Shown here piece after piece: positions 7,140-25,956 of a stretch of DNA of 64,000 nt. Where the stretch lies: the sequence record PZ495249.1; one strand, given 5' to 3'. A model generated the notes under the pieces. The model was not told the DNA's origin and did not search any database. It saw nothing but the letters and a program-made list of their open reading frames with translations. Positions within the stretch are counted from its first letter, which is position 1, and each line of letters opens with the position of its first letter. A program made the translations under genes and the position numbers. Source of the DNA: a phage.

Positions 7140-8264
7140 TCACATAATCAGTGACAGGTTTGCACTTCGCGTTGTGCTTGGTTCCAGTACCACACGGAAG
7201 CTGTCGCCTGGTTCATCGCTGTACACCACCAGTTTACCACCTGCAATCAGGTCTGTCTTCCACTTCGTGGCGTTCAGGTGAATGCGTGGATCACCTTCAT
7301 CATCAATGATGACTGCGGAACATTCTTCGAATGCTTCCTGATTGTCCTGCGTTGCCGGACGCAGATAAACATCGAGGGTTTTGATGCCACTCAGGAATGA
7401 CATTGGATTGAATCCATGCCAGTTGCTAACCCAGTTCACTTCTGCCAGTTTACCGTTCACGGTGATATTGCTGATATCCCACTTGGCTTCGCCGCCCAGG
7501 GAAATACCCATCATATCCAGACACGCTTTGAAGGTCATGTCTTTGTAGAAGTTAAGCTCTTCCACGATGCCTTGAATCACATCGAAGGAGAGTTCCAAAC
7601 TCACATCCCACAGACGCTGGAAGCTTGCCTGATGCTCTTTATCATCGAGATTCTTATCCAGATAATCGAGCATTGTCTCCAGGGAGATCTTATCATAGTT
7701 GAAGCTGTAGAAGATACGGCTCGGACGGTTGATAAAGAACTCGGAGATGAAGCCGCTATTCTTGGTCAGAATAAACAGCTTGTTACCACTGCCTGTACCA
7801 TCCAAAAGCGTTAACAGCGCTTCCTGATCCTGTTTCTTCTCGTACACTTTGTCAAACTCATCGAAGATGACAATTGCTTTCTCTGCAATCTTGCTCATCA
7901 GTTCAATGAAATTGGCATCGCTATACGCTTGCGTTACCATAATAACTGGTAAACCCTCTGCTGCCAGTTTACGGCTAATCACCTTAGCCAGCATGGTTTT
8001 ACCGCTACCCTTTGTGCCGGATAAGAGAACACCTGTGTTCTTGCCCTGCTCCGCACGACGCTTGTAGGTAGAGATGATGTGCGATGCACGTTTCTCTGTT
8101 TCACCATACAGGACGCTTGGTACTCCTGTCAAATCCCCACGACTAAGGAAGTAGTTACCCAGTGGATCACGGCTCACTGTCCAGAAACCAGCAGGGAGAG
8201 TTTCGCTCTTGACACCTGCCTCTTTGTCCACTACTGCGATATCACCATAAATTGTGTATGACAC
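7140..8264 (-). CDS. P-loop ATPase (AAA-like), paralog of 24796..25956
   Basis: Walker A GTKGSGKT and Walker B IVIFDEFD; long blocks conserved with the 24796 gene product. Confidence 0.75.
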   Translation of the reverse strand: MSYTIYGDIAVVDKEAGVKSETLPAGFWTVSRDPLGNYFLSRGDLTGVPSVLYGETEKRASHIISTYKRRAEQGKNTGVLLSGTKGSGKTMLAKVISRKLAAEGLPVIMVTQAYSDANFIELMSKIAEKAIVIFDEFDKVYEKKQDQEALLTLLDGTGSGNKLFILTKNSGFISEFFINRPSRIFYSFNYDKISLETMLDYLDKNLDDKEHQASFQRLWDVSLELSFDVIQGIVEELNFYKDMTFKACLDMMGISLGGEAKWDISNITVNGKLAEVNWVSNWHGFNPMSFLSGIKTLDVYLRPATQDNQEAFEECSAVIIDDEGDPRIHLNATKWKTDLIAGGKLVVYSDEPGDSFRVVLEPSTTRSANLSLIM

Positions 8265-8278
8265 ATAACCCCCTTAAA

Positions 8279-8671
8279 TTATTTTTTAATCAACTGTGCT
8301 GCGTATTCAATCAGCCAAACTTTCGGTGCAATAGAGATGTAAGCCAACTGGAGAAGATTCGCGACAAGCATACTACCACCGACAGCTAAACCTACTACCC
8401 AGAAGATAAATTGTACGAAAGTACCCAACCCTTTTTCATACTGGTTCAGGTTTGGTTTGAATCTGTTACCCATTTTGCACAAGAACACCAGAATAACGAT
8501 ACCAACCACCATCCAAATCGAAACCTTCGCAATGTTCCACATGATAAGTTGATGGATAACTTCTGGAATTTGTTGTTTACCAAACTCCACAACATCGCTG
8601 ACGCTTTGTACTGTCACATCAATCATCTTGACCAGTAACTCACTTGCCTTTGCTTCGAGTGCCTCGTTCAT
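8279..8671 (-). CDS. membrane protein (130 aa)
   Basis: track ORF; AAGGAG RBS; hydrophobic segments. Confidence 0.55.
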   Translation of the reverse strand: MNEALEAKASELLVKMIDVTVQSVSDVVEFGKQQIPEVIHQLIMWNIAKVSIWMVVGIVILVFLCKMGNRFKPNLNQYEKGLGTFVQFIFWVVGLAVGGSMLVANLLQLAYISIAPKVWLIEYAAQLIKK

Positions 8672-8741
8672 GTTTTCTCCTTAGTGGATTAGTTTCTCTC
8701 AACAAGGAACACTTTACAGTGCTCCTCAGTGAAAGTCAACT

Positions 8742-9341
8742 TTATTTGAAGTTGCGCAGTACCAGGTTGGTATTCTGAATAGCGTTGATATCACGCTCAC
8801 TGTTACGAACCAGGAAAATACCGCCACCACTGGTGATCATGTCACGTTTAGCTACGAACACAGAGCGCAGGGACTGATCTTCGTTCAAAGCAACACAGAT
8901 ATCACCAGGTACGATGTTCAGGAATGTGAAGGTTTTATCGGTGTCCTTGCGGTACGTTGGCTGAGCCACACGAACACGCGCTGGTTTGCCGTTGAACAGC
9001 ACACGGATCGCATTACCTTTGATCTGGAACTTAGCTTTCGGTAGAACAGTTTCCAGAATGTTCGGGCGGGTAGAAGGGCTACGCGCTGTGCTAACCAGAC
9101 GGACATATTCACCTTGTTTTGGTTGCTCAACCATCACTTTCGCAGGTGCGGCAACAGGCGTTGCTTTTACGGTGGGTGCTTTCAGCTTAGCCATCTCACC
9201 TTCAACCTTCTCCAGCTTTTCCAGACGCGCATCAGCGAGAACAGACAAGCCGTATGATTTGGTTTCCAGATAATCAATACGTGCTTCCAGTTCAGCAACA
9301 ATCGCATCGTGAGTAGTTTTACGCATCAGACCAAAAATCAT
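8742..9341 (-). CDS. hypothetical protein (199 aa)
   Basis: track ORF; AGGAG RBS. Confidence 0.6.
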   Translation of the reverse strand: MIFGLMRKTTHDAIVAELEARIDYLETKSYGLSVLADARLEKLEKVEGEMAKLKAPTVKATPVAAPAKVMVEQPKQGEYVRLVSTARSPSTRPNILETVLPKAKFQIKGNAIRVLFNGKPARVRVAQPTYRKDTDKTFTFLNIVPGDICVALNEDQSLRSVFVAKRDMITSGGGIFLVRNSERDINAIQNTNLVLRNFK

Positions 9342-9355
9342 ATATTTCTCCTCTT

Positions 9356-9622
9356 TTAAAATTCAACACACTTGTCTAAGTGTTCCAGTTCAACTTCTGC
9401 CAAGGTTAGCATCTTAACTAAACCCTTGTCAATACCTAATTTGATTACTCCGTAATAATCACCAAACAAATCTGTGGGGCAGATCTCATGCTCAGTGACA
9501 ACCACTACCTCGTTACCAGCGACGTACTCACGCCACACCTTACCGCATTTCCACACATGATCTGCTGCATCATCAGAGATCATCTTCTGTTTAACTTTAA
9601 TCAAAACACCCTCGTTGTCCAC
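9356..9622 (-). CDS. hypothetical protein (88 aa), GTG start
   Basis: track ORF; first codon is GTG; overlaps stop of upstream gene. Confidence 0.5.
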   Translation of the reverse strand: MDNEGVLIKVKQKMISDDAADHVWKCGKVWREYVAGNEVVVVTEHEICPTDLFGDYYGVIKLGIDKGLVKMLTLAEVELEHLDKCVEF

Positions 9623-9846
9623 TCTTTACCAGAAGGATAATTACCTCGGCAAATCTTGCCGTCTGAATGCCAGTTTATGCTATCAGGGAACGTATGTCCA
9701 GCAATTTTTTCATGTGGGAGCCATTCTGTTGGCTTCTCATTCCCGTTGATCCACTTGAAACCAGCATCTTCAAGCAGTTCCAGTGCAAAGATCATATCAT
9801 CTTCACAATAAACCGTCATCTTCTGACCTTTAACGAAGTTCATCAC
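9601..9846 (-). CDS. hypothetical protein (81 aa)
   Basis: track ORF in tight array. Confidence 0.5.
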   Translation of the reverse strand: MMNFVKGQKMTVYCEDDMIFALELLEDAGFKWINGNEKPTEWLPHEKIAGHTFPDSINWHSDGKICRGNYPSGKEWTTRVF

Positions 9847-10178
9847 ATATCTCCGTAGCAGACGGTAATATCCATCTCTTTGCAGAGCTTATCCCAGGCT
9901 TGGCTACCGAAGCTGCGACCGCAAATGCAACTATATGCGAAGCAACATGCCGCATGGTACACTAAGGCTTCTGCATCTTCTTCGGCAGAAACTTCTTCTT
10001 GTTTGCCGTAACGCATATCGAACACCACTTTACCATCCTTTTCAAAAACATGCAAGTGGCTCTTAGCCTGGCTGTGGAGATCGGCATAATAAACACCGTT
10101 GGCACGTTTGTGCAACGAAACTTCAATATCGTTGTCAATCAGGTAGGACAGCATTTCTAATACGTTTGGGCTAAACAT
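9843..10178 (-). CDS. hypothetical protein (111 aa)
   Basis: track ORF; start overlaps neighbour stop. Confidence 0.5.
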   Translation of the reverse strand: MFSPNVLEMLSYLIDNDIEVSLHKRANGVYYADLHSQAKSHLHVFEKDGKVVFDMRYGKQEEVSAEEDAEALVYHAACCFAYSCICGRSFGSQAWDKLCKEMDITVCYGDM

Positions 10179-10187
10179 AATTTCTCC

Positions 10188-10595
10188 TTAGTTATACAGA
10201 TTGTTGAAGTATTTAGCAAAGAGTATACGCCCTTCGCGTTCAATGTCAAGACGTTCTGTACGTTTTGCAATATAATGTGGATCAGAGTGGTGGATGATAT
10301 CCTTACTTTGATCGAAAGCATCAATCATACGATCAACGACCCGCAGCCATTCCTTATCTGCCTGTTCAATCTGTTCTTCCGTATGCTCTCCCTGTGGGAC
10401 AGTTGGGAACATCTCACGCAGCAATAAACCAGGGACAGCGCGGAATGGATCATTCGCAATCACTACACGGAACTGGCACAACCCCTGAAAAATGATGGTG
10501 GCGAGAGTAGTATCCAGATCCAACACATCTTCTTTTTCCAGGATCACTTCGGTAATGGTGTCGCCTTTTTCATTCTTCATGTTCTTACTCCTCAT
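10188..10595 (-). CDS. hypothetical protein (135 aa)
   Basis: track ORF. Confidence 0.55.
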   Translation of the reverse strand: MRSKNMKNEKGDTITEVILEKEDVLDLDTTLATIIFQGLCQFRVVIANDPFRAVPGLLLREMFPTVPQGEHTEEQIEQADKEWLRVVDRMIDAFDQSKDIIHHSDPHYIAKRTERLDIEREGRILFAKYFNNLYN

Positions 10596-11055
10596 TTACA
10601 GCTTTCAATTTACGCAGGATGTTTTCCACTTCTGACATAGTTTTAGCTTCTTCAAGCTGGCTTGTCAAGCGAGTAATGATGCCTTTAATTACATCAGGAT
10701 TCGTCTTTGGCTCACGGCGGCGCAGAGCACTCATCTCTTCATAGTGCTTGTTCTCTACTTCCGTCACTTCGTTACGCCAATCCACTTCATCCATTGCGCC
10801 TTTACAGACGCAAGTGAAACCTGTCACATCGTAGTTGCCATAACGTGCAATGTTGGGTTGCAGAGGTAAGCCCTCGTTCCCGCAGTAGGCACACACTGGA
10901 CGACCATAAGTGCTGATCATTTTCGTGGGTTCAGCGTCACACTCACTATTCCAACTGATACGGTAGCTGGAACCATTATCACCATGTGAGGAACCAACAA
11001 AACCACGGCTAAAGCGGTCGTATGAACGTTCATCTGCGTAGTCAGGAATAGCCAT
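10585..11055 (-). CDS. hypothetical Cys-containing protein (156 aa)
   Basis: track ORF. Confidence 0.55.
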   Translation of the reverse strand: MAIPDYADERSYDRFSRGFVGSSHGDNGSSYRISWNSECDAEPTKMISTYGRPVCAYCGNEGLPLQPNIARYGNYDVTGFTCVCKGAMDEVDWRNEVTEVENKHYEEMSALRRREPKTNPDVIKGIITRLTSQLEEAKTMSEVENILRKLKAVNEE

Positions 11056-11068
11056 TTGAATTCTCCTC

Positions 11069-11362
11069 TTAGAATGCCAACACTTTCTTCGTTTCGGTAG
11101 GTGCAGTATCGAACAAGTCGATCACAAAGTCAAGCATTTTTATTAACTCGTTTGTGACATTAAACTCTTTATACGAACGGAGTTGAGTTTTCTCTTCTCC
11201 CACCTGGTGCAACACCTTAATCGGTGCATCCAGACGAATGTTACGATCTTCGTCCTCCTCGAAAGAAGCTAACCATTTCTCGTTAACACCGTGGATAGCA
11301 ATGATGATGCCATACCCTTCGGCTGTTTCTGAGATGTTCTTGGTAGATGCAATGATTTTCAT
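11069..11362 (-). CDS. hypothetical protein (97 aa), first gene of the leftward unit
   Basis: track ORF; AGAGGAG RBS; promoter at about 11392..11419. Confidence 0.55.
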   Translation of the reverse strand: MKIIASTKNISETAEGYGIIIAIHGVNEKWLASFEEDEDRNIRLDAPIKVLHQVGEEKTQLRSYKEFNVTNELIKMLDFVIDLFDTAPTETKKVLAF

Positions 11363-11391
11363 TTATTACTCCTCTTGTTTCAATACCGCCC

Positions 11392-11419
11392 ATCTTACTT
11401 GAAAAATATTTCATGTCAA
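11392..11419 (-). promoter_or_regulatory. leftward promoter TTGACA-N16-TAAGAT
   Basis: divergent pair with rightward promoter; -35 hexamers about 3 nt apart. Confidence 0.5.
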
Positions 11420-11422
11420 GTG

Positions 11423-11450
11423 TTGACTTTCATTTCTGGTTTGATAAGAT
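11423..11450 (+). promoter_or_regulatory. rightward promoter TTGACT-N16-TAAGAT
   Basis: 30 nt upstream of RBS of gene 11481..11969; strand-switch point. Confidence 0.5.
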
Positions 11451-11480
11451 TGTTGCATACAAAACGAGAGGAGACACCTA

Positions 11481-11969
11481 ATGTACAATCTGACCTGGAC
11501 TCAAGCCCAAGAAGCAATGCGTGAAGGTAAACGTGTTAAGAACAGCAACTTCACGGACGAAGAGTTCTTCTATATGGAAGATGGAAAGATCTGGGATGAG
11601 CAGGGCTACCCAATGGCTGGCTGGTATCGTGGCTACGATTGGCAGGAGGCAGGTTGGATGATCCTGGAAGACAACTTCAAACCTTTTGAAGAAGATATCT
11701 CAGAATCTGCCTGGAAAGAAGAAGAGATCCGTCTTACTGGTGCAGAACGCCAGAAGATGAAAGCTGTTATGCTTGGTGAAAACTATTCTGCACTGGAGGA
11801 GAAAGTTCTTGCACTTTACGCAGGGCAAGGTTATGATTTGGAAACTATGGATTGCTACGTTGGTATCACTCCACGATCTCCGACCTTACCTCGTGAAAAG
11901 GAGAACTACAACTTCCGTATCACGAAAGGTCGTGGTCATAACAAATTACAGAAGAGGAAAAAGAAATGA
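11481..11969 (+). CDS. hypothetical protein, N-terminus resembling DUF2829 (Tad2-like) fold
   Basis: track ORF; GAGAGGAG RBS; N-terminal W..A.EAMREGKRV...GW...DW pattern; first gene after rightward promoter. Confidence 0.6.
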   Translation: MYNLTWTQAQEAMREGKRVKNSNFTDEEFFYMEDGKIWDEQGYPMAGWYRGYDWQEAGWMILEDNFKPFEEDISESAWKEEEIRLTGAERQKMKAVMLGENYSALEEKVLALYAGQGYDLETMDCYVGITPRSPTLPREKENYNFRITKGRGHNKLQKRKKK

Positions 11970-12073
11970 TAACATTTCTGTTAGGGTTGGGTATCGGAAC
12001 ACTATTAGGATATATAGCTGTTGTTCTTATCGTTGGAGCAATAGCGGTTTTAATTTTAGATCTATTCAGTTAA
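11966..12073 (+). CDS. small hydrophobic protein (35 aa)
   Basis: hand-called ORF; ATGA start/stop overlap with upstream gene; one predicted helix. Confidence 0.3.
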   Translation: MITFLLGLGIGTLLGYIAVVLIVGAIAVLILDLFS

Positions 12074-12082
12074 GGAGCAGAG

Positions 12083-12256
12083 ATGACTAAATACTACCGG
12101 AACAAACATAACGATCTGATCTACTGGGTCCAGGATGATGTTGTGCTGTGTGACGATGATGATATGTGTGATACCATGCCATCAGCTTTCACTTTAGCCG
12201 AATTTGAGGAAGCACTGCTGGATACTTTTGCGTTTGAAGAAGTGATGGATGTATAA
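12083..12256 (+). CDS. small acidic protein (57 aa)
   Basis: hand-called ORF; AAGGAG RBS. Confidence 0.4.
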   Translation: MTKYYRNKHNDLIYWVQDDVVLCDDDDMCDTMPSAFTLAEFEEALLDTFAFEEVMDV

Positions 12257-12420
12257 TGACTATCTATCAAAATCAGTTTCGTGCTGTCATGCGTAAATAC
12301 GTTGGCAACAAGGGTTACGCCTCTACGGATGGTGGAGTCACTTGGTCTGAAAGCGGTACACCGGAAGAACTGATCAAGAAACTTCCATACTACAAAATTG
12401 TGAATAAAGGAGGAGAGTAA
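12256..12420 (+). CDS. small protein (54 aa)
   Basis: hand-called ORF; TAATG overlap with upstream ORF. Confidence 0.4.
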   Translation: MTIYQNQFRAVMRKYVGNKGYASTDGGVTWSESGTPEELIKKLPYYKIVNKGGE

Positions 12421-12421
12421 A

Positions 12422-12829
12422 ATGAAAAAACAATCTATCTTCAATACTGCTGTGGGTGTCCTCACTATCGCCTTAGCTACGGTTAGTCTTATTGGTTGTG
12501 AACAAGCTGCTGACGTTGCAAGCCGTAACATCGCCACCGCTGGCGATAACTTTGAAGTGTTGCGTTCTATTCACTTCATCAACACCCGTACAGATAAAGA
12601 ACTCATGCGTATCGAAGGTTACTGTGCGAAAGACAACAGTAGCACTGATCGTACACTGATCATCACCTGCCGAGATAAGGCCAACGGTTCCGTGAAGAAG
12701 CACTATATGGGGCTGTCTACCGACACCACCTACTTCATTGAACAAGTGGATGGTGCTCAGGTGAGCGTGGATCACACCCGTGTTATCTTTGCTCCACAAA
12801 CTCTGATCCCAAGTCTGGAAGTACGCTAA
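12422..12829 (+). CDS. lipoprotein (lipobox L-I-G-C)
   Basis: track ORF; signal peptide ending in LIGC; AAGGAGGAG RBS. Confidence 0.65.
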   Translation: MKKQSIFNTAVGVLTIALATVSLIGCEQAADVASRNIATAGDNFEVLRSIHFINTRTDKELMRIEGYCAKDNSSTDRTLIITCRDKANGSVKKHYMGLSTDTTYFIEQVDGAQVSVDHTRVIFAPQTLIPSLEVR

Positions 12830-13176
12830 TGGCTGAACTCACTGTACGTGAAAAGGTGATGAAAGCCGAACTGCAAAACATTGCCTGTGATCTGGGGTTA
12901 GACCACGAGACAGCGGGATTCTTGGACATTGTGAATGCAATCTTTGCATTACAACATCCGTGGATTGATGTTGATGGTATTGACAACATGCCATTTGGTA
13001 ACTGGATTGTCATTATGGCTGATGGTAAACATGGCGTTTGCCAGGTAGTACAAGGTGGTAGCGGTAAGTTTGCAGTGATCAATGGTCACTTCTACTTTGA
13101 CCTGGAACCAGTGGTAGCATACATGCCTATGCCTGAATATATCCCGAAAGGAGGTGTTGAATGTCCTTCTTCTTAG
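12829..13176 (+). CDS. hypothetical protein (115 aa)
   Basis: track ORF; TAATG overlap with upstream gene. Confidence 0.55.
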   Translation: MAELTVREKVMKAELQNIACDLGLDHETAGFLDIVNAIFALQHPWIDVDGIDNMPFGNWIVIMADGKHGVCQVVQGGSGKFAVINGHFYFDLEPVVAYMPMPEYIPKGGVECPSS

Positions 13177-13298
13177 GTATGAACTTGATGTTCATGGTGG
13201 CGTGTAACATTGCCGTTTGGTTGTTCAATAGTCCTGGCTTGGGGCTTGTTTTCTTAGGTTGTCAGGTTGTTTGCTTGTTCTTATCATTCTTGGAGTAG
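13161..13298 (+). CDS. small hydrophobic protein (45 aa)
   Basis: hand-called ORF; GGAGGT RBS; overlaps end of previous gene in another frame. Confidence 0.3.
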   Translation: MSFFLGMNLMFMVACNIAVWLFNSPGLGLVFLGCQVVCLFLSFLE

Positions 13299-13306
13299 GA
13301 GGTTTT

Positions 13307-13738
13307 ATGACAGATATCATTCGCGCTAAATTCGAGGAACTTCACCCGTACAAAGAGGGTAGCAACAAGAGCCTCTACGAATCGCTGTACGCGATCTTCA
13401 AGGAAGGATGGGAAAACGGTAAGTCTTCTCGTGAAAACACGCCAGAGAGCGATACAGGCCGTCGTTATGGCTTCTGCATCCCTGTTATGGAGTTTGAACG
13501 AGGTTGGGGTGCTAAACACGATGGCTACATGGTTGGTTTTACCATCGAAGATATTAAAGCCCGTCAGGAGATTTTTGAAAGAACCAATTCTGACGATTAC
13601 GGCTTGTACTATGCTCGCCCTAATGAATTTACTCCTGTGGAGTTGACAGAAGAGGCAATTGAAGCTTTAATGTTAGCTACCGACAGACACTGTACGATCT
13701 GGTTTGATTATGCAGAACAATTTGCAAAAGGAGAATAA
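13307..13738 (+). CDS. hypothetical protein (143 aa)
   Basis: track ORF 13259..13738 trimmed to Met with AGGAGG RBS. Confidence 0.6.
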   Translation: MTDIIRAKFEELHPYKEGSNKSLYESLYAIFKEGWENGKSSRENTPESDTGRRYGFCIPVMEFERGWGAKHDGYMVGFTIEDIKARQEIFERTNSDDYGLYYARPNEFTPVELTEEAIEALMLATDRHCTIWFDYAEQFAKGE

Positions 13739-13739
13739 C

Positions 13740-14015
13740 ATGCAGAACAACGTCACACCACGCGCTAATATTTCAGATCACATCATCGAAACTGCTGATG
13801 GCAGTTTGTTGTTACTGAAAGATCCTGTTGACTGGAAAGAGGGTGAAACTGTAAGAACAGCATCATCCTCCGTGAAAGGTGTTGACATTCGAGAGTTCTG
13901 TGCTGTATTCTGCAAGGACACAGGCATTCAACAAATTACCTTCGACCAAATGTATCAGATCTGTGAAGTGATGCTGCAAATGGAAGAAGCTGGAAAGGAG
14001 GTATTCCCTAAATGA
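13740..14015 (+). CDS. hypothetical protein (91 aa)
   Basis: track ORF 13704..14015 trimmed to Met with AAAGGAGAA RBS. Confidence 0.55.
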   Translation: MQNNVTPRANISDHIIETADGSLLLLKDPVDWKEGETVRTASSSVKGVDIREFCAVFCKDTGIQQITFDQMYQICEVMLQMEEAGKEVFPK

Positions 14016-14287
14016 GCAAACATCCATACTACCAACTGCTGGCGATGTTACGTAAACAGCGCAACAACATGATCGCAGACTTCCGTCACTTCAAACGGGA
14101 TCGTGTTAACCGTCATTGGATGCCACATAGTGCATTCTCTCATACGGTGACACGCTTCCGTCAGAAGATTAAGGAGATTGACAACCTGATCTTCTACAGT
14201 AAGCTGGCTATCCGTGTATCTCGTGAAACCGGAGTGCAATACCTATACGATCATGAGAACAACCGTATCTACTTTGAACTCCCGTAA
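14012..14287 (+). CDS. hypothetical basic protein (91 aa)
   Basis: track ORF; ATGA overlap. Confidence 0.55.
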   Translation: MSKHPYYQLLAMLRKQRNNMIADFRHFKRDRVNRHWMPHSAFSHTVTRFRQKIKEIDNLIFYSKLAIRVSRETGVQYLYDHENNRIYFELP

Positions 14288-14428
14288 ATAAATGTCACCA
14301 GGGTATTGACTTTCGTTAAAAAGTATGCTACCCTAACCCTGAAAGGTGACGAGCGAAGCGAGTGTGATTTATCTATTCGTTCCTGACACTCGTAGAGTGG
14401 AAGGGACGGATAGCTTAGAGGAGGAAAT

Positions 14429-14695
14429 ATGGATGTAATGACTATGAGATTCATAGTGATCTTCTTGATTATCCTGGTAGGTTTAGTTATTATACCTGCT
14501 GGTTTATGTCTTTGCTGGATGCGTAAGTATGGTGATAATGGTAGATGGTGGATGTTACCTGTATTGTTAGTTTACCTTTACCTATTCTTCAACTATTCTA
14601 ATCTTCTCATGCCTGAGAGATGGACATTGAAGCCAGTGGAAGTGTATCGCTGTGAATGGAAAACTGAATATATACCTAAATACCCTATTGACTAA
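14429..14695 (+). CDS. membrane protein (88 aa)
   Basis: track ORF; GAGGAGGA RBS; two hydrophobic segments. Confidence 0.55.
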   Translation: MDVMTMRFIVIFLIILVGLVIIPAGLCLCWMRKYGDNGRWWMLPVLLVYLYLFFNYSNLLMPERWTLKPVEVYRCEWKTEYIPKYPID

Positions 14696-14714
14696 CTGAT
14701 CAGAGAGGATTACT

Positions 14715-14924
14715 ATGACAATCAGCACAACAAAGTTACCAGCTAACAAGGACAGACCGGATGATCGTCCATACGAAGTTACTGCTTACGATGACATGAT
14801 TCTGATTGAACGTGACAGTAATTTCTTGTATGATTACGAATCTATGGCTCTAACCAAAGAACAAGCCCTGTGTCTCGCTCGATACATCATGGGTAAGTAT
14901 GGAATCAAAAACGAGGAGGTATAA
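14715..14924 (+). CDS. hypothetical protein (69 aa)
   Basis: track ORF; AGAGGA RBS. Confidence 0.5.
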   Translation: MTISTTKLPANKDRPDDRPYEVTAYDDMILIERDSNFLYDYESMALTKEQALCLARYIMGKYGIKNEEV

Positions 14925-14925
14925 C

Positions 14926-15153
14926 ATGCAAATCGAATATCCTGTGTTTCGTCGTAAAGGCGTGAAAGCCAAGTTCAACCTGGATCAGTATGCAGGCTAC
15001 AGTGTGGCTGAATGGGATACTTGTCGTATCCACCTGACGAACGGTAACACCGTTCACACGGCGTGGTCGCCGGAGCACCTGGAACGCGCTATCGAGCGTG
15101 CGGAGAAAGCCGAGATTGAGGCGGAGAACTGCCGTTGGGATCTTGAGGACTGA
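14926..15153 (+). CDS. hypothetical protein (75 aa)
   Basis: track ORF 14899..15153 trimmed to Met with GAGGAGG RBS; terminator follows. Confidence 0.5.
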   Translation: MQIEYPVFRRKGVKAKFNLDQYAGYSVAEWDTCRIHLTNGNTVHTAWSPEHLERAIERAEKAEIEAENCRWDLED

Positions 15154-18137: not shown

Positions 18138-18494
18138 ATGAGTTATCAAGAAGCATTAGAAGCAACAGGTGCGGAAGTGCTGGACTACCAGGAATTTGGT
18201 AGCTATCAGGGCGAATGGTTGGCTCTTGTACGAGTTAATGGTGTTCTCGGTGTAGCTGAGGGTTCCTACGGCTCCTGCTCTGGTTGTGACTCGTTTGAGG
18301 CAGAATTTGGTTGGGGTGATCGTGATGCTGACGACTACCAGGAGCGACTCGCTGATTTCGGCAATGGTTATCTTCCGGCTTGGTCGTTCAATGAATTAAT
18401 CTCTCGCCTGGAGTACCAGGTGGAGGAGTATTCATGGGGTGATTACGAAGAAATGTTGGAGAAAGTTAAGGCTTGGAAAGAAGCCTACGAGTAA
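18138..18494 (+). CDS. acidic hypothetical protein (118 aa)
   Basis: track ORF; GAGGAGAG RBS; strongly Asp/Glu-rich. Confidence 0.6.
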   Translation: MSYQEALEATGAEVLDYQEFGSYQGEWLALVRVNGVLGVAEGSYGSCSGCDSFEAEFGWGDRDADDYQERLADFGNGYLPAWSFNELISRLEYQVEEYSWGDYEEMLEKVKAWKEAYE

Positions 18495-18503
18495 GGAGGG
18501 ACA

Positions 18504-18881
18504 GTGAAAACAACGATTGAAGTTGATTTAAAATGGTATACAATGCGTCAGAATAACTCTGGTGGTTACTTCATCCGTAATGATGAAGTGAGAGACACGG
18601 TTATCATCCAAGCAACATCACCAGAGGATGCACAGAGTCGTGCTGATCGTATAACCTGTGGAAATGACTCATACTGTGAATGCTGCGGTGAACGTTGGTA
18701 CACTTGGTTTAGCTCAACAGATGGTGAAGAAGTACCAAGTTTGTACGGTACACCAATCGACGAATTAGATCGTGAATCTTTCCGTTATGATGCAGTGTTG
18801 TACTACTTTGACGGAACCAAGCGTTTCTATAAGTTTGGTACTGGGTTCGTACCTTACGAACAACTGGAGGATGATGAATGA
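18504..18881 (+). CDS. hypothetical Cys-containing protein (125 aa), GTG start
   Basis: track ORF; AAGGAGGG 4-5 nt before GTG. Confidence 0.55.
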   Translation: MKTTIEVDLKWYTMRQNNSGGYFIRNDEVRDTVIIQATSPEDAQSRADRITCGNDSYCECCGERWYTWFSSTDGEEVPSLYGTPIDELDRESFRYDAVLYYFDGTKRFYKFGTGFVPYEQLEDDE

Positions 18882-19240
18882 TTAAGTGGCTATTGGTGAT
18901 CGCGCTGTTTTTATCTGCTGGCGCGAATGCGCGGGAAGGATTCAAAGTGGTTGCCAATGGCACTAAATTCTTTACCTGGTATGGTGGTGTAGCTTTATAC
19001 CAAGATGAAGGTAAGGACATTCGTTGTAAGCTGGACAAGAGTACAAAATCAGTGGATCAGTGGGGCGATGCCTTTAAAGCCACTGGCTTTTATTGTGGGA
19101 AGGATCTCTTCATCCTTGTCAAAGAATACATGGACATAGACCGCCAACTCTTCATCACTCTCAATCCTGCGAAATTTGAAGAAAGGAAAACCTACAAAGT
19201 AGATTTGTTCCTGGAGTACAAAGAGGACGAGAAGAAATGA
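18878..19240 (+). CDS. secreted protein with signal peptide (120 aa)
   Basis: track ORF; N-terminus MIKWLLVIALFLSAGANA. Confidence 0.6.
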   Translation: MIKWLLVIALFLSAGANAREGFKVVANGTKFFTWYGGVALYQDEGKDIRCKLDKSTKSVDQWGDAFKATGFYCGKDLFILVKEYMDIDRQLFITLNPAKFEERKTYKVDLFLEYKEDEKK

Positions 19241-19614
19241 AAGTTTTAAATTTTTACCACCTTGGCAAGGTGATTCCAGAGGGAGCGACATACATTGGAC
19301 GTGCAATGCCCCACTTCGGGCTTAAAGCCTCCAAGTTTGCCAACCCTTTTAAGCTACAAGATGGAGAGCCAAGAGGCTCAACAATTCAGCGATACAAAGA
19401 ATGGTTGTGGGAACAGATACGTTCTGGTAAGATTACCCTTGAGGATTTACTGGAATTGGAAGGTCAAAACCTTGTTTGCTTCTGTGCTCCTCAAGCTTGT
19501 CACGGAGATGTGTTGGTTGCAGCCGTACAATGGGCGAGAAGAGAATGGGACAAACGTCACCCGCCATTTAAAGATGACTATTGGGTTTGGGAGGAAAATT
19601 ATGGTAACAGTTAA
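19237..19614 (+). CDS. hypothetical protein (125 aa) with CxC..CHGDVL motif
   Basis: track ORF; ATGA overlap. Confidence 0.6.
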   Translation: MKVLNFYHLGKVIPEGATYIGRAMPHFGLKASKFANPFKLQDGEPRGSTIQRYKEWLWEQIRSGKITLEDLLELEGQNLVCFCAPQACHGDVLVAAVQWARREWDKRHPPFKDDYWVWEENYGNS

Positions 19615-19831
19615 AGTGTTTGCCTATAAAGATGATTTGGGGATTGACTGCGAAGATTTCGTGGTTAATGATGGCATACTCTTTCCATTGGGAGAATCCA
19701 AGGATGAAGAAGATCGGAAAGCAACGGCTATCCGTTGTGTGAAAGGTCACTTTTACGGCTTAAATGCCGATCAGAACATGGACAAGAAAGCAGTCCTGAT
19801 TGCAACCTATACCTTCGAGGAGGAAGTATGA
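19601..19831 (+). CDS. hypothetical protein (76 aa)
   Basis: track ORF 19295..19831 trimmed to Met 103 with GGAGGAAAA RBS. Confidence 0.5.
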   Translation: MVTVKVFAYKDDLGIDCEDFVVNDGILFPLGESKDEEDRKATAIRCVKGHFYGLNADQNMDKKAVLIATYTFEEEV

Positions 19832-20202
19832 ATCAAACAACACAAGATATTGATATCTTCAAACTAACCATGCTGGCAGATCGTCCAGCCACCATTTACC
19901 ATGATCTGGATAAGAACGATACCTTCATCTACATCGGTGCAGAACGTTTCACAATTCCGCATGGTTCAATGGCACTCTCCCGACCAGGAGATCACCCACT
20001 GAAAGAAAAATTCAGAGGCTTCGGTTTCGCACAGGATGTTAAACTGGATGGTTGGATCAAAGTGTTCCAGATGGATGAACACTACCTGGTGATGTTCGCC
20101 ACAGAGAAGTTCACGGAGCAACCAGGGGAACCTGATGCAGTGAATGATATCATCCTGCTCAAAGCAGGTAACGCACTGGATGACGTTAAAGCCCTAAGCT
20201 AA
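19828..20202 (+). CDS. hypothetical protein (124 aa)
   Basis: track ORF 19735..20202 trimmed to Met with GGAGGAAG RBS. Confidence 0.55.
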   Translation: MNQTTQDIDIFKLTMLADRPATIYHDLDKNDTFIYIGAERFTIPHGSMALSRPGDHPLKEKFRGFGFAQDVKLDGWIKVFQMDEHYLVMFATEKFTEQPGEPDAVNDIILLKAGNALDDVKALS

Positions 20203-20211
20203 GGAGGCAAG

Positions 20212-20721
20212 ATGTTTTTTGATGTTTTCTCACCTTTGGTTGAATCTTCAAGCCAAGCGGTTATTTACCCTGAGTGGGATGAACGTGAAGAGTGGATTGA
20301 AAACCACGATTACGATCCGACAAATGTAAACTGGTGTAGCCTGGATGTTCATAACTTCAAACGTGATACAGGCATCTTAAAATATTACGCTTTCTACACG
20401 GTGGATAACATCTACGAATACTTTGTGTTCCGTAGTTTGATTATCCATCTGAACAAACTTGGTGGTCTGGAGGGTAAAGGTAGTTTCACTTTAGGCCACT
20501 ACATCCCCTTTAAGAAAGGGGGCGTTCACTTCCCCAGTAATTGGATCATTCAAACTCAACGTGAGAACTCTCACGCTGGAGATAAATTGCCGGAGAAAAA
20601 AGAAAAATGGACATGGGAAGAGCAGAAAGATTATATCTTCAAGCACTTACCAGAAGATTTGAACGGTGAGTATGCAGAAATCACTATAAAACGTATGTTG
20701 CAAGTGATGGACTTTTACTGA
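20212..20721 (+). CDS. hypothetical protein with possible HNH-like (His-Me finger) motif
   Basis: track ORF; AAGGAGG RBS; GHYIPFKKGG...N....REN pattern. Confidence 0.55.
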   Translation: MFFDVFSPLVESSSQAVIYPEWDEREEWIENHDYDPTNVNWCSLDVHNFKRDTGILKYYAFYTVDNIYEYFVFRSLIIHLNKLGGLEGKGSFTLGHYIPFKKGGVHFPSNWIIQTQRENSHAGDKLPEKKEKWTWEEQKDYIFKHLPEDLNGEYAEITIKRMLQVMDFY

Positions 20722-20730
20722 GGAGGAACA

Positions 20731-21192
20731 ATGAGTAAACGTTTTGGACGAAACCAAAAACGCAAAATGCGTGAAGCTCTGGCTGCACAGCAAGAACAAT
20801 TAAATAAATTGCAGAGAGATCTTGACAACAGTCGTAATGAGAATAGAATGGAGCGCGAATGTCTTGAAATGACATGCGAACTCCTGGGAGAATATTTCCC
20901 AACCCTCATGCCTAAAACCAAAGATGTAAATTACCTTCCAGTACAATTAGCTCGTACATCTGGTGAAGATATCTACAATATGATGGCGACTATTCACACC
21001 TTACGAGGTATTGAGTATCGTGCTGACCTCGACAGATTACGAGATACTATGTATATCCGTGTCTCTACACCGGAAGGTGGTACTGTGGCATATAACTGGC
21101 AGTTTAGAAATCTGCCCTCACACATCATGGAGCGAGTATTGGAACGAGATCTGATTCCCATGTTAGTGAATGAAATTAAGAGAGGAATGTAA
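20731..21192 (+). CDS. coiled-coil protein (153 aa)
   Basis: track ORF; GAGGAGG RBS. Confidence 0.6.
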   Translation: MSKRFGRNQKRKMREALAAQQEQLNKLQRDLDNSRNENRMERECLEMTCELLGEYFPTLMPKTKDVNYLPVQLARTSGEDIYNMMATIHTLRGIEYRADLDRLRDTMYIRVSTPEGGTVAYNWQFRNLPSHIMERVLERDLIPMLVNEIKRGM

Positions 21193-23006
21193 TGGCTAAA
21201 AGCGAACTAAGTTTTACACCGACTGACGAACAATTTGCAATTGAAGGTGCGTTCAAAGAGAACCGATTCACCACCATTCAAGCTAAATCTGGATCTGGTA
21301 AAACTTCCACATTGTATATGCTGGCAAATGGTACGGATGATAAGATCCTGTATCTGGCATTTAACAAAAGCATGGCAGAAGAAGCCCGTCGCAAGATGCC
21401 GGATAATGTAGAATGCAGAACATTGCATTCCATATGCTACCAGCAACTGGATCAGTCTCTGCGTCACAAGCTGACACGTCCAGAAGGTGCATACGTTAAC
21501 GTGGCAGGAACGGGTAACGAGATTGCCAAGAAGTTCAAAATCAATAACTTGATTGATAAAAATGGGAAAACTCTGCTCACTCGTGCAATGATTGGTTTGA
21601 TGATCAAGCAAACTGTGGGTAAGTTTGAATTCTCCGACGATGCTCACCTGGGGCGTAAACACTTCCCTACTGTGCATCTGGCAGATATTAAACGCAAAAA
21701 CATCAATGAAAACAAACTGATTTCAGAGGTGGTTACGTATGCTAAACAGCTTTGGCGTGAACGTATTGATCCTAAGTCAGAAACAATCATGACTCACGAC
21801 ACCTATGTGAAACTGTTTGAATTGTCGGGTAAAGACTTGGGATACGATATCATCTTTGGTGATGAGTTCCAGGACGTTAACCCTGCGTTCCTGTCCATCC
21901 TGCGTAATGCCAAGGCAGCTAAACGCATTGTGGTGGTAGGGGATGAATTCCAGAGTATCTATCAGTTCCGTGGTAGTCAGAACATGATGAAAGAAACCTC
22001 CACCTACGGTGTAGAACTTCCTCTGACAGCATGTTTTCGATTCGGTCCGAAAGTGGCAACTATCGCCAACATGATCCTGGAAGATAAAGAACCGCTGGCT
22101 CACCCGCTGGTAGGTAAAGGTTATGATACAACGGTAGGCAGTTATGTCTCTGATATGGTGGATTACACCAAGCCGTATACAATCATCTTCCGTAAAAACC
22201 TGACACTGCTGATGGAAGCAATGGATCGTATCGCTGATGGTGAGGAGATTATCATCAACGTTGACACCAAAGACTTTATCTCAATGGTGGATAGCGTGAA
22301 CGCTCTGCGTCGTGGTGATATTGAGAAGGTGAAACACGAAACAGTGTTACCATATGCAAACTGGGATGAGTTTGTAGAGTGCGCTGAGAGCGATCCTGAC
22401 GCGAAACGACTGCTTAACGTAGTTGTGAGTGGGAAAGCGAATACAATCGCTCACACCCTGCGTACACATCGAAATTCACCTACTGCGAAGGTGACGCTCA
22501 CTACGGCTCACAAGTCAAAAGGTCTGGAGTGGGATCAGGTAGTTGTTGCTAACGACTTCCCTTCCAACTATGATAAGAAAACAGGGGAATGGGTGGGTTT
22601 GGAAGAAGCAGAGCGTAACCTGTTGTACGTAGCCCACACTCGTTGTATCAAATGCTTACAGTGGAACAGCACTGTTCAAGAGATTATTGATATCAGGGGT
22701 GTAGCGCAGGAGAAAACTGCGCCCCCAAAGGAGAAGCCGCTTAAAGGCGGCATCCCCATCGAAAATGTTCGCTTAGGCGTGTTTGGTGCTGGCTGTACGA
22801 CAGCCAGTGATATCAAGTGCTTCGTAGCAGATAGCTTCGATGGTAACGATAACCACCTCCAGGCTTACGAAAGTTGGCTTGAAGATGGTGACGGTGAATT
22901 CCTGGGAGAGATTGATTTGATGCCGGACTTGTCCCGTAGCAATGACCTCTTAGGACGCATCGAAAGAAAGATAGCAATGGAAAACTATGACGGAGATACC
23001 TGTTAA
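21192..23006 (+). CDS. UvrD/PcrA-like superfamily 1 DNA helicase
   Basis: Walker A AKSGSGKT; Walker B FGDEFQD; helicase C-terminal motifs; 604 aa. Confidence 0.8.
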   Translation: MAKSELSFTPTDEQFAIEGAFKENRFTTIQAKSGSGKTSTLYMLANGTDDKILYLAFNKSMAEEARRKMPDNVECRTLHSICYQQLDQSLRHKLTRPEGAYVNVAGTGNEIAKKFKINNLIDKNGKTLLTRAMIGLMIKQTVGKFEFSDDAHLGRKHFPTVHLADIKRKNINENKLISEVVTYAKQLWRERIDPKSETIMTHDTYVKLFELSGKDLGYDIIFGDEFQDVNPAFLSILRNAKAAKRIVVVGDEFQSIYQFRGSQNMMKETSTYGVELPLTACFRFGPKVATIANMILEDKEPLAHPLVGKGYDTTVGSYVSDMVDYTKPYTIIFRKNLTLLMEAMDRIADGEEIIINVDTKDFISMVDSVNALRRGDIEKVKHETVLPYANWDEFVECAESDPDAKRLLNVVVSGKANTIAHTLRTHRNSPTAKVTLTTAHKSKGLEWDQVVVANDFPSNYDKKTGEWVGLEEAERNLLYVAHTRCIKCLQWNSTVQEIIDIRGVAQEKTAPPKEKPLKGGIPIENVRLGVFGAGCTTASDIKCFVADSFDGNDNHLQAYESWLEDGDGEFLGEIDLMPDLSRSNDLLGRIERKIAMENYDGDTC

Positions 23007-23194
23007 TGGACGGAAGTTCAATTCTGCACAAAGTATTAACCTGGCTTGAACAAGAAGTAGAAAAAGGCTTGCATGATCCCTCAGTGGATGCTAAAGTAGA
23101 GTCACTTTTGAAACTTGGCTGGACAAAGACCAAAGAACAACTCATCGAACTCGTTGAGAAGTGGGATGGCACTGAGGACAGTTTGAAGAAATAA
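23006..23194 (+). CDS. hypothetical protein (62 aa)
   Basis: track ORF; terminator immediately downstream. Confidence 0.5.
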   Translation: MDGSSILHKVLTWLEQEVEKGLHDPSVDAKVESLLKLGWTKTKEQLIELVEKWDGTEDSLKK

Positions 23195-23197
23195 TAC

Positions 23198-23219
23198 ATG
23201 CCCCTTCGGGGGCATTTTA
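23198..23219 (+). terminator. rho-independent terminator
   Basis: ATGCCCC-TTCG-GGGGCAT stem plus TTTT. Confidence 0.55.
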
Positions 23220-23232
23220 CAGGAGATAACTT

Positions 23233-23445
23233 ATGTGTGAGAATGACACTATTGCTTTTGGAATGAATGCAGCAGAAATCGTGTTGACAATTTTTGCATT
23301 TGGTTCTATCATTGCCTTAGCTGTTGTGATGATTGCCTATCTTAACGGACATATTTTTGCCGATGCTGAAACTAAAGCAACCAGAGGTACTCTCACAAGA
23401 GAACAGATCTCAGAACTGCATAGCCACATGATACGCAAAGAATAA
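23233..23445 (+). CDS. small membrane protein (70 aa)
   Basis: track ORF; AGGAGA RBS; one hydrophobic helix. Confidence 0.5.
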   Translation: MCENDTIAFGMNAAEIVLTIFAFGSIIALAVVMIAYLNGHIFADAETKATRGTLTREQISELHSHMIRKE

Positions 23446-23460
23446 TTAAAGGAGAAAAGA

Positions 23461-23895
23461 ATGAGCATTGTAACTCAAATGAAAGCAGATCGTATTCTGG
23501 CACGTACCACAGATAAAGGTGCGTTCGCCCTGTTAACCAATATCATCGGTGAGTTTGATCTCGCTCGTACTCAGAAAGCGAATCTGGGTAAATCCGAAGA
23601 CGATATCATGATCAATATCGTAAAAGTCGGGATTGCTCACACCAAAGAAGAGATTGCTTCTCTGAAAGCTGTATCTGCTTCCCAGGCACGTATCGAACGT
23701 GCAGAGCGCGATGTTATCGTACTGGAGCGCTATCTGCCGGAAATGCTGTCTGAGGAAGACCTGCGTTTCATTGCAGAAGAATTTGCTCTATCTGGTAAGA
23801 AAATGCCCGATATGATGAAACACCTGCGTACTGATTTCCCTAACCAGTACGATGGTAAACTGGCTTCCACTATCGCTAAGGAGATCTTGGGATGA
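23461..23895 (+). CDS. GatB/YqeY-domain protein
   Basis: track ORF; AAAGGAGAAAAG RBS; YqeY-like helical pattern (..LERYLPEMLSEEDL..). Confidence 0.65.
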   Translation: MSIVTQMKADRILARTTDKGAFALLTNIIGEFDLARTQKANLGKSEDDIMINIVKVGIAHTKEEIASLKAVSASQARIERAERDVIVLERYLPEMLSEEDLRFIAEEFALSGKKMPDMMKHLRTDFPNQYDGKLASTIAKEILG

Positions 23896-24728
23896 ATATT
23901 TTAAAAATTGCTTTTGATGACAAGCAGCTTGATAAAGAAAAACTGCAAAACGTCTTAGATGCTATTCAAACTGATCACATTTTCTGGGAGAATGCTGATG
24001 AATTTATTCTCTTTTCAAGAGACGGGGAATTCACATGGCTTGAAAAAAGCGGAGATACCATTTCTCTTGGTGGTGGTGCAAATCTACCTGGTGGAGTTGA
24101 GGTGGTTGATTTTGATGTGTGGTACAAAGAGGCTATGAAAACACTTGGAGAAGAAACAATTACCGATAAGAAAGAAGATAAAATTATCGGTATTCCAGAA
24201 GGGTTTATCTATCACGATGGTAAATCTGTCGTAGGTGACAAAGATCGCAAAGTGAAGATCGTAGTTCGCGAGGGGGATGTATTAGATGGTAGGGTGGGAG
24301 AATTCCGTTGGAATCATTACGGCAATGACCGAGATATTGTAGGTTATAGATTCTTGGATGACAAGCCAACACCTGTACGTAACCCTCGTCCACGCTATCG
24401 TAAACGTACTCGTCAGAAGCCAACCGTGGCTAAAACTATCGTCCGTGTACTTTACACCACGCAGCAAGTGTACACGTTTAAAAACGTGCGCAGTGTGCAG
24501 GTGATCGATGGTACGGTGTACATCCAACATGAGCGGGAAGTCACCGAAGGTATTAAAGAGAGCATCGAAACTGAGATCGATGAAAAACTGCTGATGGCTG
24601 TAGTGATCCACGATGTGGGTAATCGCTCAAGCTTCCTGCGTAACATTGACGGCTCCTGGGATTACCAGGCAGAAGATGGTACGGTGATCAATGGCGGTAA
24701 ACAACTCGGTCGAATTTTTAAAAAATAA
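23892..24728 (+). CDS. hypothetical protein (278 aa)
   Basis: track ORF; ATGA overlap. Confidence 0.6.
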   Translation: MNILKIAFDDKQLDKEKLQNVLDAIQTDHIFWENADEFILFSRDGEFTWLEKSGDTISLGGGANLPGGVEVVDFDVWYKEAMKTLGEETITDKKEDKIIGIPEGFIYHDGKSVVGDKDRKVKIVVREGDVLDGRVGEFRWNHYGNDRDIVGYRFLDDKPTPVRNPRPRYRKRTRQKPTVAKTIVRVLYTTQQVYTFKNVRSVQVIDGTVYIQHEREVTEGIKESIETEIDEKLLMAVVIHDVGNRSSFLRNIDGSWDYQAEDGTVINGGKQLGRIFKK

Positions 24729-24795
24729 GAGTTGATTTTCACAGGGGAGGTTGATATACTTCCCCTACACTTTAAAGAGAAAGAAGGAGAAATAC

Positions 24796-25956
24796 ATGTT
24801 CACACAATTCGGTAGCCAAATCTTCCTGCGTCAGAAATCCGGTGTTGATATCGACGTAATTCCAGCGGGTACTTATGGTATCGGCGTTACAATGGAAGGT
24901 GCGTTTTATCTGTACCCTAAAAACGATATGGAAGTGCCAGCCGTAACCTACGGCGACACAGATGACAAGTCCGAACGTATCATCAAGACGTTCCTGAGCC
25001 GTGATGGTAAGAACACTGGTGTTCTCCTGGAAGGTACTAAAGGCAGTGGTAAAACCCTGCAAGCGAAAATGCTGTCAGTGGCACTGCGTAAACAGGGCAT
25101 CCCTACCATCTCCATCGGTAGCCCGTTCAACGGTGAAGCGTTCATCAACTTCATGTCGAAAATCAAACAGCCGATCATGGTGATGGTGGATGAATTCGAT
25201 AAGCTTTATGCTGAGAAAGAACACCAGGACGGTCTGCTTACTCTGCTGGATGGTGTCGGTGGTTACAACAAACTGTTCGTTCTGACCAAAAACGATGGTT
25301 ATGTTTCTGAATTCCTGCGCAACCGACCAAGCCGTATCTTCTATAGCTTTAGCTATAAGAAACTGCCTAAGTCTACGCTGGATGATTACCTGGATAAAAA
25401 CCTGGTAAACAAAGCGTTCGTTGCAGACTTCGAAACTCTGTACAACCTGTCAGCAGATCTGAACTTCGACGTAATTCAGTCGCTGGTAGAAGAACTGAAC
25501 CGTTACCCTGACGATAAGTTCTCTGATGCGCTGAACCTGATGGGTATTTCGATCAACGAAGGTAGCCGTTCTGCCAAAGAGATTAAAACTCTGAAAGTGA
25601 ATGGTGTAGATCGTCTGCAAGATGTCCGTGGATTCGATCTGTCTGGAATGTCAGCACAGTCCCTGTTCCAGGGCGCTAAGTTCCAGATCAACGTAGACCA
25701 CAAAGAAGGTACTGAACGTCTGCCTAACATGAAAGGTGTTGTTACCCTTGACCAGCAGGACGCTGACGGCGATTGGTACTATGATTGCGACAAGATCTTC
25801 ATCAGCTACGATGAGAAGAGCATTAAGAGCATGGGCGGAGATGGTTATCACTTCGTGTTCGCTCAGGGCGATAACGTCATTGAGATTGAGGTGAAACAGA
25901 AAGAAACCCTCAACTACATGGATTACGCCTTCTCAGGCGCAGGTTACAACTACTAA
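24796..25956 (+). CDS. P-loop ATPase (AAA-like), paralog of 7140..8264
   Basis: track ORF 24751..25956 trimmed to Met with AAGGAGAAA RBS; Walker A GTKGSGKT; Walker B VMVDEFD. Confidence 0.75.
   Translation: MFTQFGSQIFLRQKSGVDIDVIPAGTYGIGVTMEGAFYLYPKNDMEVPAVTYGDTDDKSERIIKTFLSRDGKNTGVLLEGTKGSGKTLQAKMLSVALRKQGIPTISIGSPFNGEAFINFMSKIKQPIMVMVDEFDKLYAEKEHQDGLLTLLDGVGGYNKLFVLTKNDGYVSEFLRNRPSRIFYSFSYKKLPKSTLDDYLDKNLVNKAFVADFETLYNLSADLNFDVIQSLVEELNRYPDDKFSDALNLMGISINEGSRSAKEIKTLKVNGVDRLQDVRGFDLSGMSAQSLFQGAKFQINVDHKEGTERLPNMKGVVTLDQQDADGDWYYDCDKIFISYDEKSIKSMGGDGYHFVFAQGDNVIEIEVKQKETLNYMDYAFSGAGYNY

Follow-up and report, generated by a model that had tools for sequence, protein, structure and literature searches.

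Two diverged AAA+ ATPases of one phage family encoded on opposite strands in a phi92-group Klebsiella phage

The closest described relatives of the genes treated here come from phage phi92 and from Klebsiella phage phi1_175008. In phi92 the product of gene 190 (YP_009012522.1) is annotated as 'ATPase; putative ATPase or Zn metalloprotease', and in phi1_175008, which is classified in Stephanstirmvirinae, two genes (XKX17617.1 and XKX17661.1) are both named plainly 'ATPase'. In the present work a stretch of phage DNA of 64,000 nucleotides (sequence record PZ495249.1, called the window at its full length) was analysed, which carries two genes of this kind, A and B, on opposite strands. B is the orthologue of phi92 gene 190 (74% identical), the phi1_175008 copies are orthologues of B and A (86% and 96.5% identical, respectively), and A is 74% identical to its orthologues in the phi92-like phages (Justusliebigvirus). 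The phi92-like phages and phi1_175008 have the same gene order and the same two-copy state as the window, and nothing essential is different. In phi92, however, B follows directly after the intron-split nrdD and nrdG (3435-5980, compared with 23892-24795 in the window) and has no promoter-like cassette, while in the window and in phi1_175008 nrdD/nrdG are absent at this site and B is preceded by a 278-amino acid protein, the C-terminal half of which matches PHROG 15930. The window DNA is 82-90% identical to that of the Klebsiella phages phi1_175008, KP2025, FKP3 and KP13-26, and its polymerase/primase region is about 76% identical to the phi92-like coliphages; it belongs to a Stephanstirmvirinae Klebsiella phage of the phi92 group. 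The two genes are the following:

7140..8264, minus strand: paralogue A, 374 amino acids, GTG start behind AAGGGGG, AAA-type ATPase of PHROG 2376
24796..25956, plus strand: paralogue B, 386 amino acids, ATG start behind AAGGAG, PHROG 2376

A third copy of the ATPase was not found in the 64-kb window by tblastn, and no tRNA or Rfam elements were found in it. The reading that we favour, with reasonable though not strong confidence, is that A and B, as old paralogues within a single phage-specific AAA+ family, act as remodelling rings with different clients or partners.

An earlier note on this DNA, made by reading the letters, had described A and B as diverged paralogous P-loop ATPases on opposite strands. 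The pairwise alignment bore this out: BLASTP gave 44% identity and 63% positives over 308 amino acids (E 2e-81), and every shared block quoted in the note lies inside this alignment. Since the likeness extends far beyond the generic P-loop motifs, the paralogy is real. The further statement that the two proteins differ at both termini held only in part, as the C-terminal 115-130 amino acids or so could not be aligned by BLAST, but the N-terminal 50 or so still align from residue 2-3 onwards. Identity between A and B in the global alignment was 24% in the N-terminal domain, 55% in the core, 51% in the lid and 23% in the C-terminal domain. Most of the divergence falls in the two beta domains, the small N-terminal one and the C-terminal one, both of which are still homologous. 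The direct hhalign match between the C-terminal domains was weak (P 0.01). In profile comparison, both C-termini matched an intermediate clade of homologues, P0025-P0030 (E 5e-7 and 1e-8), and tblastn alignments of P0025 with A and with B ran from end to end (47% identity over 361 and 377 amino acids). The joint alignment of the C-terminal domains was collinear, with a common VNG motif, acidic loop and terminal hairpin, and the order of the strands was the same in both predicted structures. Because of the matches to the intermediate clade, the end-to-end alignment of P0025 and the common strand order, the C-terminal domains are regarded as homologous and fast-diverged. A swap of the C-terminal domain between A and B was ruled out by the profile, tblastn and joint-alignment results, fast divergence of one homologous domain being preferred.

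In the AlphaFold2 models, with pLDDT values of 87 (A) and 80 (B), both proteins have a four-part build: a five-stranded N-terminal beta domain of about residues 1-45, then the AAA core and its helical lid, and finally a beta-rich domain at the C-terminus. The parts and motifs of A, all on the minus strand, and of B, all on the plus strand, are located as follows:

8115..8264, minus strand: A, N-terminal five-stranded beta domain, residues 1-50 (AlphaFold2 model)
7695..8114, minus strand: A, linker and AAA alpha/beta core, residues 51-190
7995..8018, minus strand: A, Walker A, G83-T90 (GTKGSGKT)
7923..7925, minus strand: A, aromatic residue Y114 at the pore-loop-1 position
7857..7862, minus strand: A, Walker B, D135-E136
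7758..7760, minus strand: A, sensor-1 N169
7716..7727, minus strand: A, R180-P-S-R183
7500..7694, minus strand: A, helical lid, residues 191-255, with invariant F227-D228 and E236-x-N238
7143..7499, minus strand: A, C-terminal beta-rich domain, residues 256-374, with the hydrophobic tail at its end
24796..24936, plus strand: B, N-terminal beta domain, residues 1-47 (AlphaFold2 model)
24937..25356, plus strand: B, linker and AAA core, residues 48-187
25033..25056, plus strand: B, Walker A, G80-T87
25126..25128, plus strand: B, aromatic residue F111 at the pore-loop-1 position
25189..25194, plus strand: B, Walker B, D132-E133
25291..25293, plus strand: B, sensor-1 N166
25324..25335, plus strand: B, R177-P-S-R180
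25357..25551, plus strand: B, helical lid, residues 188-252
25552..25953, plus strand: B, C-terminal beta-rich domain, residues 253-386

The invariance of the motifs was scored over 79 homologues for A and 74 for B. Walker A (GxKGxGK(T)), the Walker B DE pair, LLxxLDG, the sensor-1 asparagine and R-P-x-R were invariant in both sets. The R-P-S-R of A and B aligns to the RPGR of p97, with R, P and R invariant; a sensor-1 asparagine together with an R-P-x-R pair is typical of the second region of homology of classic AAA proteins. An aromatic residue (Y/F/W) occupied the p97-aligned pore-loop-1 position in 75 of the 79 sequences and was followed by x-G/D, the middle residue being polar. From the invariant columns, the lid motif (S-F-D-V-I-Q..VEE versus G-A-D-I..L..EA) would be read as one without a sensor-2 arginine. 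A hydrophobic-aromatic dipeptide was present within the last 8 residues of 108 of the 117 full-length homologues, compared with a background of 22%; examples of such tails are ...SVF, ...RVW, ...TMFDGK and ...RRLFK, and the tails lie at 7143-7166 in A and 25930-25953 in B. This tail is a low-confidence part of the models, as expected for a docking peptide, and it may be a docking motif.

Family searches placed both proteins in PHROG 2376 (A: E 2.3e-101 over residues 1-302; B: E 5.9e-101 over residues 1-307), and both passed the gathering cut-off of the Pfam AAA model PF00004 (21.2 bits), A with 40.4 bits and B marginally with 23.0 bits. When the profile of the 79 homologues was compared with the PDB sequences, the best 60 matches were all classic AAA proteins, with Cdc48/p97 first (E 6e-11), then NVL, Rix7, Afg2, Msp1 and Pex1. 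By sequence profile and predicted fold the ATPase module is closest to the classic AAA clade (Cdc48/p97, NVL, Rix7, Bcs1). Several observations weigh against this placement and the remodelling role drawn from it. The module is atypically compact for a classic AAA protein: compared with p97, the pore-loop-1 segment is about 7 residues shorter and the segment from Walker B to alpha-3 (pore loop 2) about 12 residues shorter, and in the predicted structures the extra helix between beta-2 and alpha-2 is missing, only a 6-residue loop being present (A 111-116, B 108-113). Furthermore, no literature was found on the function, expression timing or essentiality of the family, and no experiment on any member; no ATPase is mentioned in the CRISPRi-ART paper on phage SUSP1, and SUSP1 is not among the tblastn matches listed for the family.

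The names given to the family in public records are in conflict with each other: orthologues or homologues are called 'replicative helicase', 'FtsH-like protease', 'ATPase or Zn metalloprotease' and 'DNA polymerase III subunit beta' (PP919962.1, MZ501063.1, NC_023693.1, MT740244.1). None of these four names fits the motifs or the predicted fold. An FtsH-like or Zn-metalloprotease identity, as in the phi92 annotation, was ruled out since HExxH and a membrane segment are lacking; Peptidase_M41 was not matched, the C-terminal domain is beta-rich, and neither A nor B contains a hydrophobic 19-mer above 1.15 on the Kyte-Doolittle scale. The replicative helicase of the KP2025 annotation was rejected because the fold is AAA+ and not RecA/DnaB. 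Of the NCBIfam models none scored above its cut-off for A or B, the best being Hda (6.7e-8, 32 bits compared with a cut-off of 195); the scores and cut-offs were 19/200 bits for IstB, 16.6/280 for the RFC large subunit and 15/250 for dnaX_nterm. A clamp loader (RFC/DnaX/T4 gp44) was rejected on these scores, on the absence of a conserved lid arginine and on the beta-rich C-terminal domain, and the initiator clade (DnaA/Hda, DnaC/IstB) on scores below cut-off and on models without an inserted initiator-specific helix. PADLOC defence models gave no match above cut-off, the best (mad8, E 1.6e-4) covering the P-loop region only.

Each of the two copies was compared with its phi1_175008 counterpart. 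For A the dN/dS was 0.05 (96.5% amino acid identity) and for B 0.12 (85.7%); the fastest-evolving part of B was its C-terminal domain, with 72% identity and a dN/dS of 0.19. The identity to the orthologues of phi92-like phages was about 74% for A and B alike. Both copies are under purifying selection and apparently still functional, neither of them decaying, since each has a low dN/dS and has kept all its catalytic motifs. A decayed pseudo-ATPase was ruled out for either copy on the same grounds, which fit retained, diverged functions. One build is common to the whole family: a small beta domain at the N-terminus, the compact ATPase module with its helical lid, and a second beta domain that ends in a short hydrophobic-aromatic tail. 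According to the proposed model A and B would each form a ring, in which ATP drives the remodelling or unfolding of a client protein. The client would be engaged via the terminal beta domains and the conserved pore-loop aromatic residue. Because the divergence is concentrated in the terminal domains, A and B would serve different clients or partners in the pre-late phase of infection, by sub- or neofunctionalisation. Subfunctionalisation, which the earlier note had suggested, is plausible in the light of the regional divergence.

The family was found by tblastn in about 400 phage records. Its carriers are Stephanstirmvirinae, several Herelleviridae genera, 7-11-like and Lahexavirus phages, and further CBB-like jumbo, crAss-like, 949-like lactococcal and 6ec-like staphylococcal phages; a Foldseek search against BFVD recovered the same build at full length in these groups. 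A profile search of 1.84 billion cluster representatives gave 3,224 clusters (50% identity) at E <= 1e-30, of which the best 150 listed are 347-443 amino acids long. Two places for the family were seen by tblastn in Lactobacillus phage Lpa804 (Herelleviridae), so that duplication of the ATPase may have occurred more than once. Within Stephanstirmvirinae, A-type genes, defined by at least 60% identity, are carried by about 133 records, and about 60 of these (Justusliebigvirus and the Klebsiella clade) also have a B-type gene. All Justusliebigvirus (phi92-like) and related Klebsiella phages carry both copies. The only copy in Phapecoctavirus shares 64% identity with A but 48% with B and lies about 2.5 kb from a divergent intergenic region, as A does in the window; A is the positional orthologue of this copy. 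Since Phapecoctavirus holds only the A type, and at the A position, B is the extra copy, placed in the replication/nucleotide-metabolism arm. In bootstrapped neighbour-joining trees on 251 core columns the A clade, including Phapecoctavirus, and the B clade were each recovered at 100%, and A, B and their relatives were set apart from all other clades at 92.5%. On the comparison of positions and trees, A is the copy at the ancestral position and B an old extra copy, either a duplicate lost from Phapecoctavirus or a gene gained from a close relative. B would have arisen within a Stephanstirmvirinae-like lineage, or have been exchanged among its members, and it is kept in all phi92-like and related Klebsiella phages, with a promoter-like site and a terminator of its own.

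The earlier note had also put the two genes in different temporal blocks. The leftward genes extend from about 11055 down through A, and the rightward genes from 11481 via the helicase gene (21192..23006) to B and beyond. The elements that bear on transcription, together with the two open reading frames (ORFs) next to A, are as follows:

11056..11480: divergent intergenic region, origin of the A arm (leftward) and of the B arm (rightward), with sigma-70-like sites both ways
24731..24766, plus strand: promoter-like cassette in front of B, GTTGATTTTCACAGGGGAG, followed by a hairpin that covers the -10-like TATACT
8700..8740, minus strand: promoter-like cassette of the A unit, GTTGACTTTCACTGAGGAG and an 11-bp hairpin, RNA fold z -4.6
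25959..25980, plus strand: terminator-like hairpin with GAAA loop and T-run, 3 bases past the stop of B, RNA fold z -3.8
8279..8671, minus strand: ORF of 130 amino acids with two hydrophobic segments, PHROG 3054 (function unknown), 14 nt upstream of A
6868..7143, minus strand: ORF of 91 amino acids, overlapping the end of A by 4 nt

Upstream of B there is a spacer of 67 nt with a promoter-like site (TTGATT, 17 nt, TATACT), and the promoter-like site of the A unit, at 8739..8711, lies upstream of the ORF 8279..8671 and then A. The two sites have a 19-nt motif in common (GTTGAyTTTCACwGrGGAG, 16/19 identical), which at both loci stands directly 3' of the stop codon of the preceding gene and is followed by a hairpin over the -10-like hexamer. 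In phi1_175008 the pairing of the B-side hairpin is kept by a G:C to A:T double change, and the A-side 19-nt motif is not conserved. The motif with its hairpin may serve as a promoter/operator cassette, or it may mark a hotspot of recombination. The hairpin 3' of B is conserved in phi1_175008 and phi92 with compensatory changes in the stem, and thus B may end a transcription unit. Just past this hairpin a putative ORF of 63 amino acids (25996-26187, plus strand), below the 80-amino acid limit of the ORF lists, was read by eye; its product would be homologous to that of a 63-amino acid ORF in phi1_175008 and to gp189 of phi92, which carries the annotation of a putative helix-turn-helix regulator. 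On the A side, the ORFs 8279..8671 and 6868..7143 are both probably co-transcribed with A. The assignment to different temporal blocks found no support, because both genes are non-structural, they lie on two arms diverging from 11056..11480, and a similar promoter-like cassette precedes B and the A unit. At the level of promoter consensus the likeness points, if anything, to similar control of A and B in this phage. A transcriptome for this phage group was not found in the literature.

The neighbouring genes were of little help for the function. No gene of the neighbourhoods in 7-11, LAh_8, CBB, an Enterococcus phage, a crAss-like phage and Lpa804 is common with that of the window, and a conserved neighbour gene was ruled out as a functional clue. 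The gene in front of the Phapecoctavirus copy is not homologous to the PHROG 3054 gene that precedes A. Ribonucleotide reductase genes lie near the family gene in the Enterococcus phage and in phi92.

The origin of B allows another explanation, which we regard as unlikely, namely that B is a xenologue, gained by recombination from a related large phage with a diverged version of the gene. The trees contain a grouping that speaks against a simple duplication within the genome: the B clade groups with the P0025-P0030 clade at 82% bootstrap, and the P0025 gene, which comes from an uncultured 154-kb phage, is found at another position there, 2.3 kb from a divergent region and upstream of a UvrD-like helicase gene. 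Transfer of B is therefore possible instead of in-genome duplication. In raw identity B is at least as close to homologues of jumbo and Aeromonas phages (about 48%) as to A (44%), and P0025 stands at the same distance (47%) from both copies. Both loci have promoter-plus-hairpin cassettes next to them. Cassettes of this type are connected with the shuffling of genes in T4-type phages. However, A, B and the intermediate clade were monophyletic relative to all other sampled clades in 92.5% of the neighbour-joining bootstraps, so that any donor would be a close relative and its contribution hard to tell from an ancient duplication followed by loss.

It was also considered that A and B could co-assemble into one heteromeric ring with a single function, their divergence being a division of labour within one machine. 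Among isolated phages each B-type genome is also A-type (two places per record), the trans-acting arginines and all the catalytic motifs are kept in both copies, the two proteins have diverged equally between the window phage and the phi92-like phages, and the cassettes in front of both are similar in the window. Against this, most lineages, including Phapecoctavirus, have a single copy, which means that a homomeric state works; the two genes lie on opposite strands with 17 kb between them, and between the window phage and phi1_175008 the dN of B is about four times that of A. A mixed ring seems improbable to us on this balance, and separate rings for different clients or partners are preferred.

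To an equally low degree we credit a role of the family as a loader or regulator of DNA replication (clamp-loader-, Hda- or DnaC-like), with the tail docking on a part of the replisome such as the host sliding clamp. Secondary PHROG matches to 'clamp loader of DNA polymerase' (1e-8) and 'DnaC-like helicase loader', the Hda model as best NCBIfam match, the compact module without pore-loop insertions, as in clamp-loader-type AAA+ proteins, and the conserved hydrophobic-aromatic tail would agree with it, as would the position of B in the replication/nucleotide-metabolism arm and of the crAss-like homologue directly after the primase gene in a replication/recombination cluster. This role is nevertheless opposed by profile scores far under the cut-offs for Hda and dnaX, by the exclusively classic AAA matches at the head of the PDB search, by R-P-x-R and LLxxxDG, which are classic-AAA signatures, by the lack of a conserved lid arginine (sensor 2), by a C-terminal domain that is beta-rich and not a helical collar, and by the position of the gene in most other phages, among small early genes without replication neighbours.

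A more far-reaching extension of the remodelling model is offered as speculation that is doubtful at present. In this extension the members of PHROG 2376 would be early host-takeover machines, which dock by their C-terminal tail on a complex of the host, such as its sliding clamp or a protease/chaperone, and then remodel it. The A/B pair would then be a split onto two host or phage targets, set by the fast-evolving terminal beta domains.

Compared with the known AAA+ systems, the best sequence-profile and fold matches of A and B are the classic AAA proteins (Cdc48/p97 D2, NVL/Rix7, Afg2, Msp1/ATAD1, Bcs1 and the ATPase module of FtsH). Common to them are Walker A and B, an LLxxMDG-like motif, the sensor-1 asparagine and an arginine pair of the R-P-G-R type, as well as the aromatic at the pore-loop-1 position and the want of a conserved sensor-2 arginine. 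A and B differ from them in an identity of no more than 15-20%, in the shortening of the two pore-loop segments and in the beta-2/alpha-2 helix, which is missing from the models; for the N- and C-terminal beta domains no counterpart was identified in classic AAA proteins, and a protease domain, HExxH and a membrane segment are lacking. With the clamp-loader and initiator AAA+ proteins (RFC, gamma/tau, T4 gp44, Hda/DnaA, DnaC/IstB) A and B have in common a minimal core without long pore-loop insertions, weak profile matches and, for some homologues, replication neighbourhoods. Unlike these proteins, they lack an SRC-type motif context, a sensor-2 arginine, a DNA-binding domain and a helical collar, and their models contain no initiator-specific helix.

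Two diverged AAA copies kept in one genome with intact catalytic residues are also found in the pairs Pex1/Pex6, Yta10/Yta12 and RuvBL1/RuvBL2. Pex1/Pex6, Rpt1-6 and RuvBL1/2 are co-assembling heteromeric rings. A and B are unlike pairs of the Pex1/Pex6 type in that single-copy relatives are common. The A/B pair is lineage-wide, and since phi92 and its relatives have both genes on record under the label 'ATPase', the pair in itself adds little. The main value of the finding is that it points to a large phage AAA family, PHROG 2376, with thousands of clusters of uniform architecture across many families of large virulent phages, for which several public names are unsupported. With two diverged copies that differ mainly in the putative client-binding domains, the phi92-like lineage offers a convenient entry to the function of this family.

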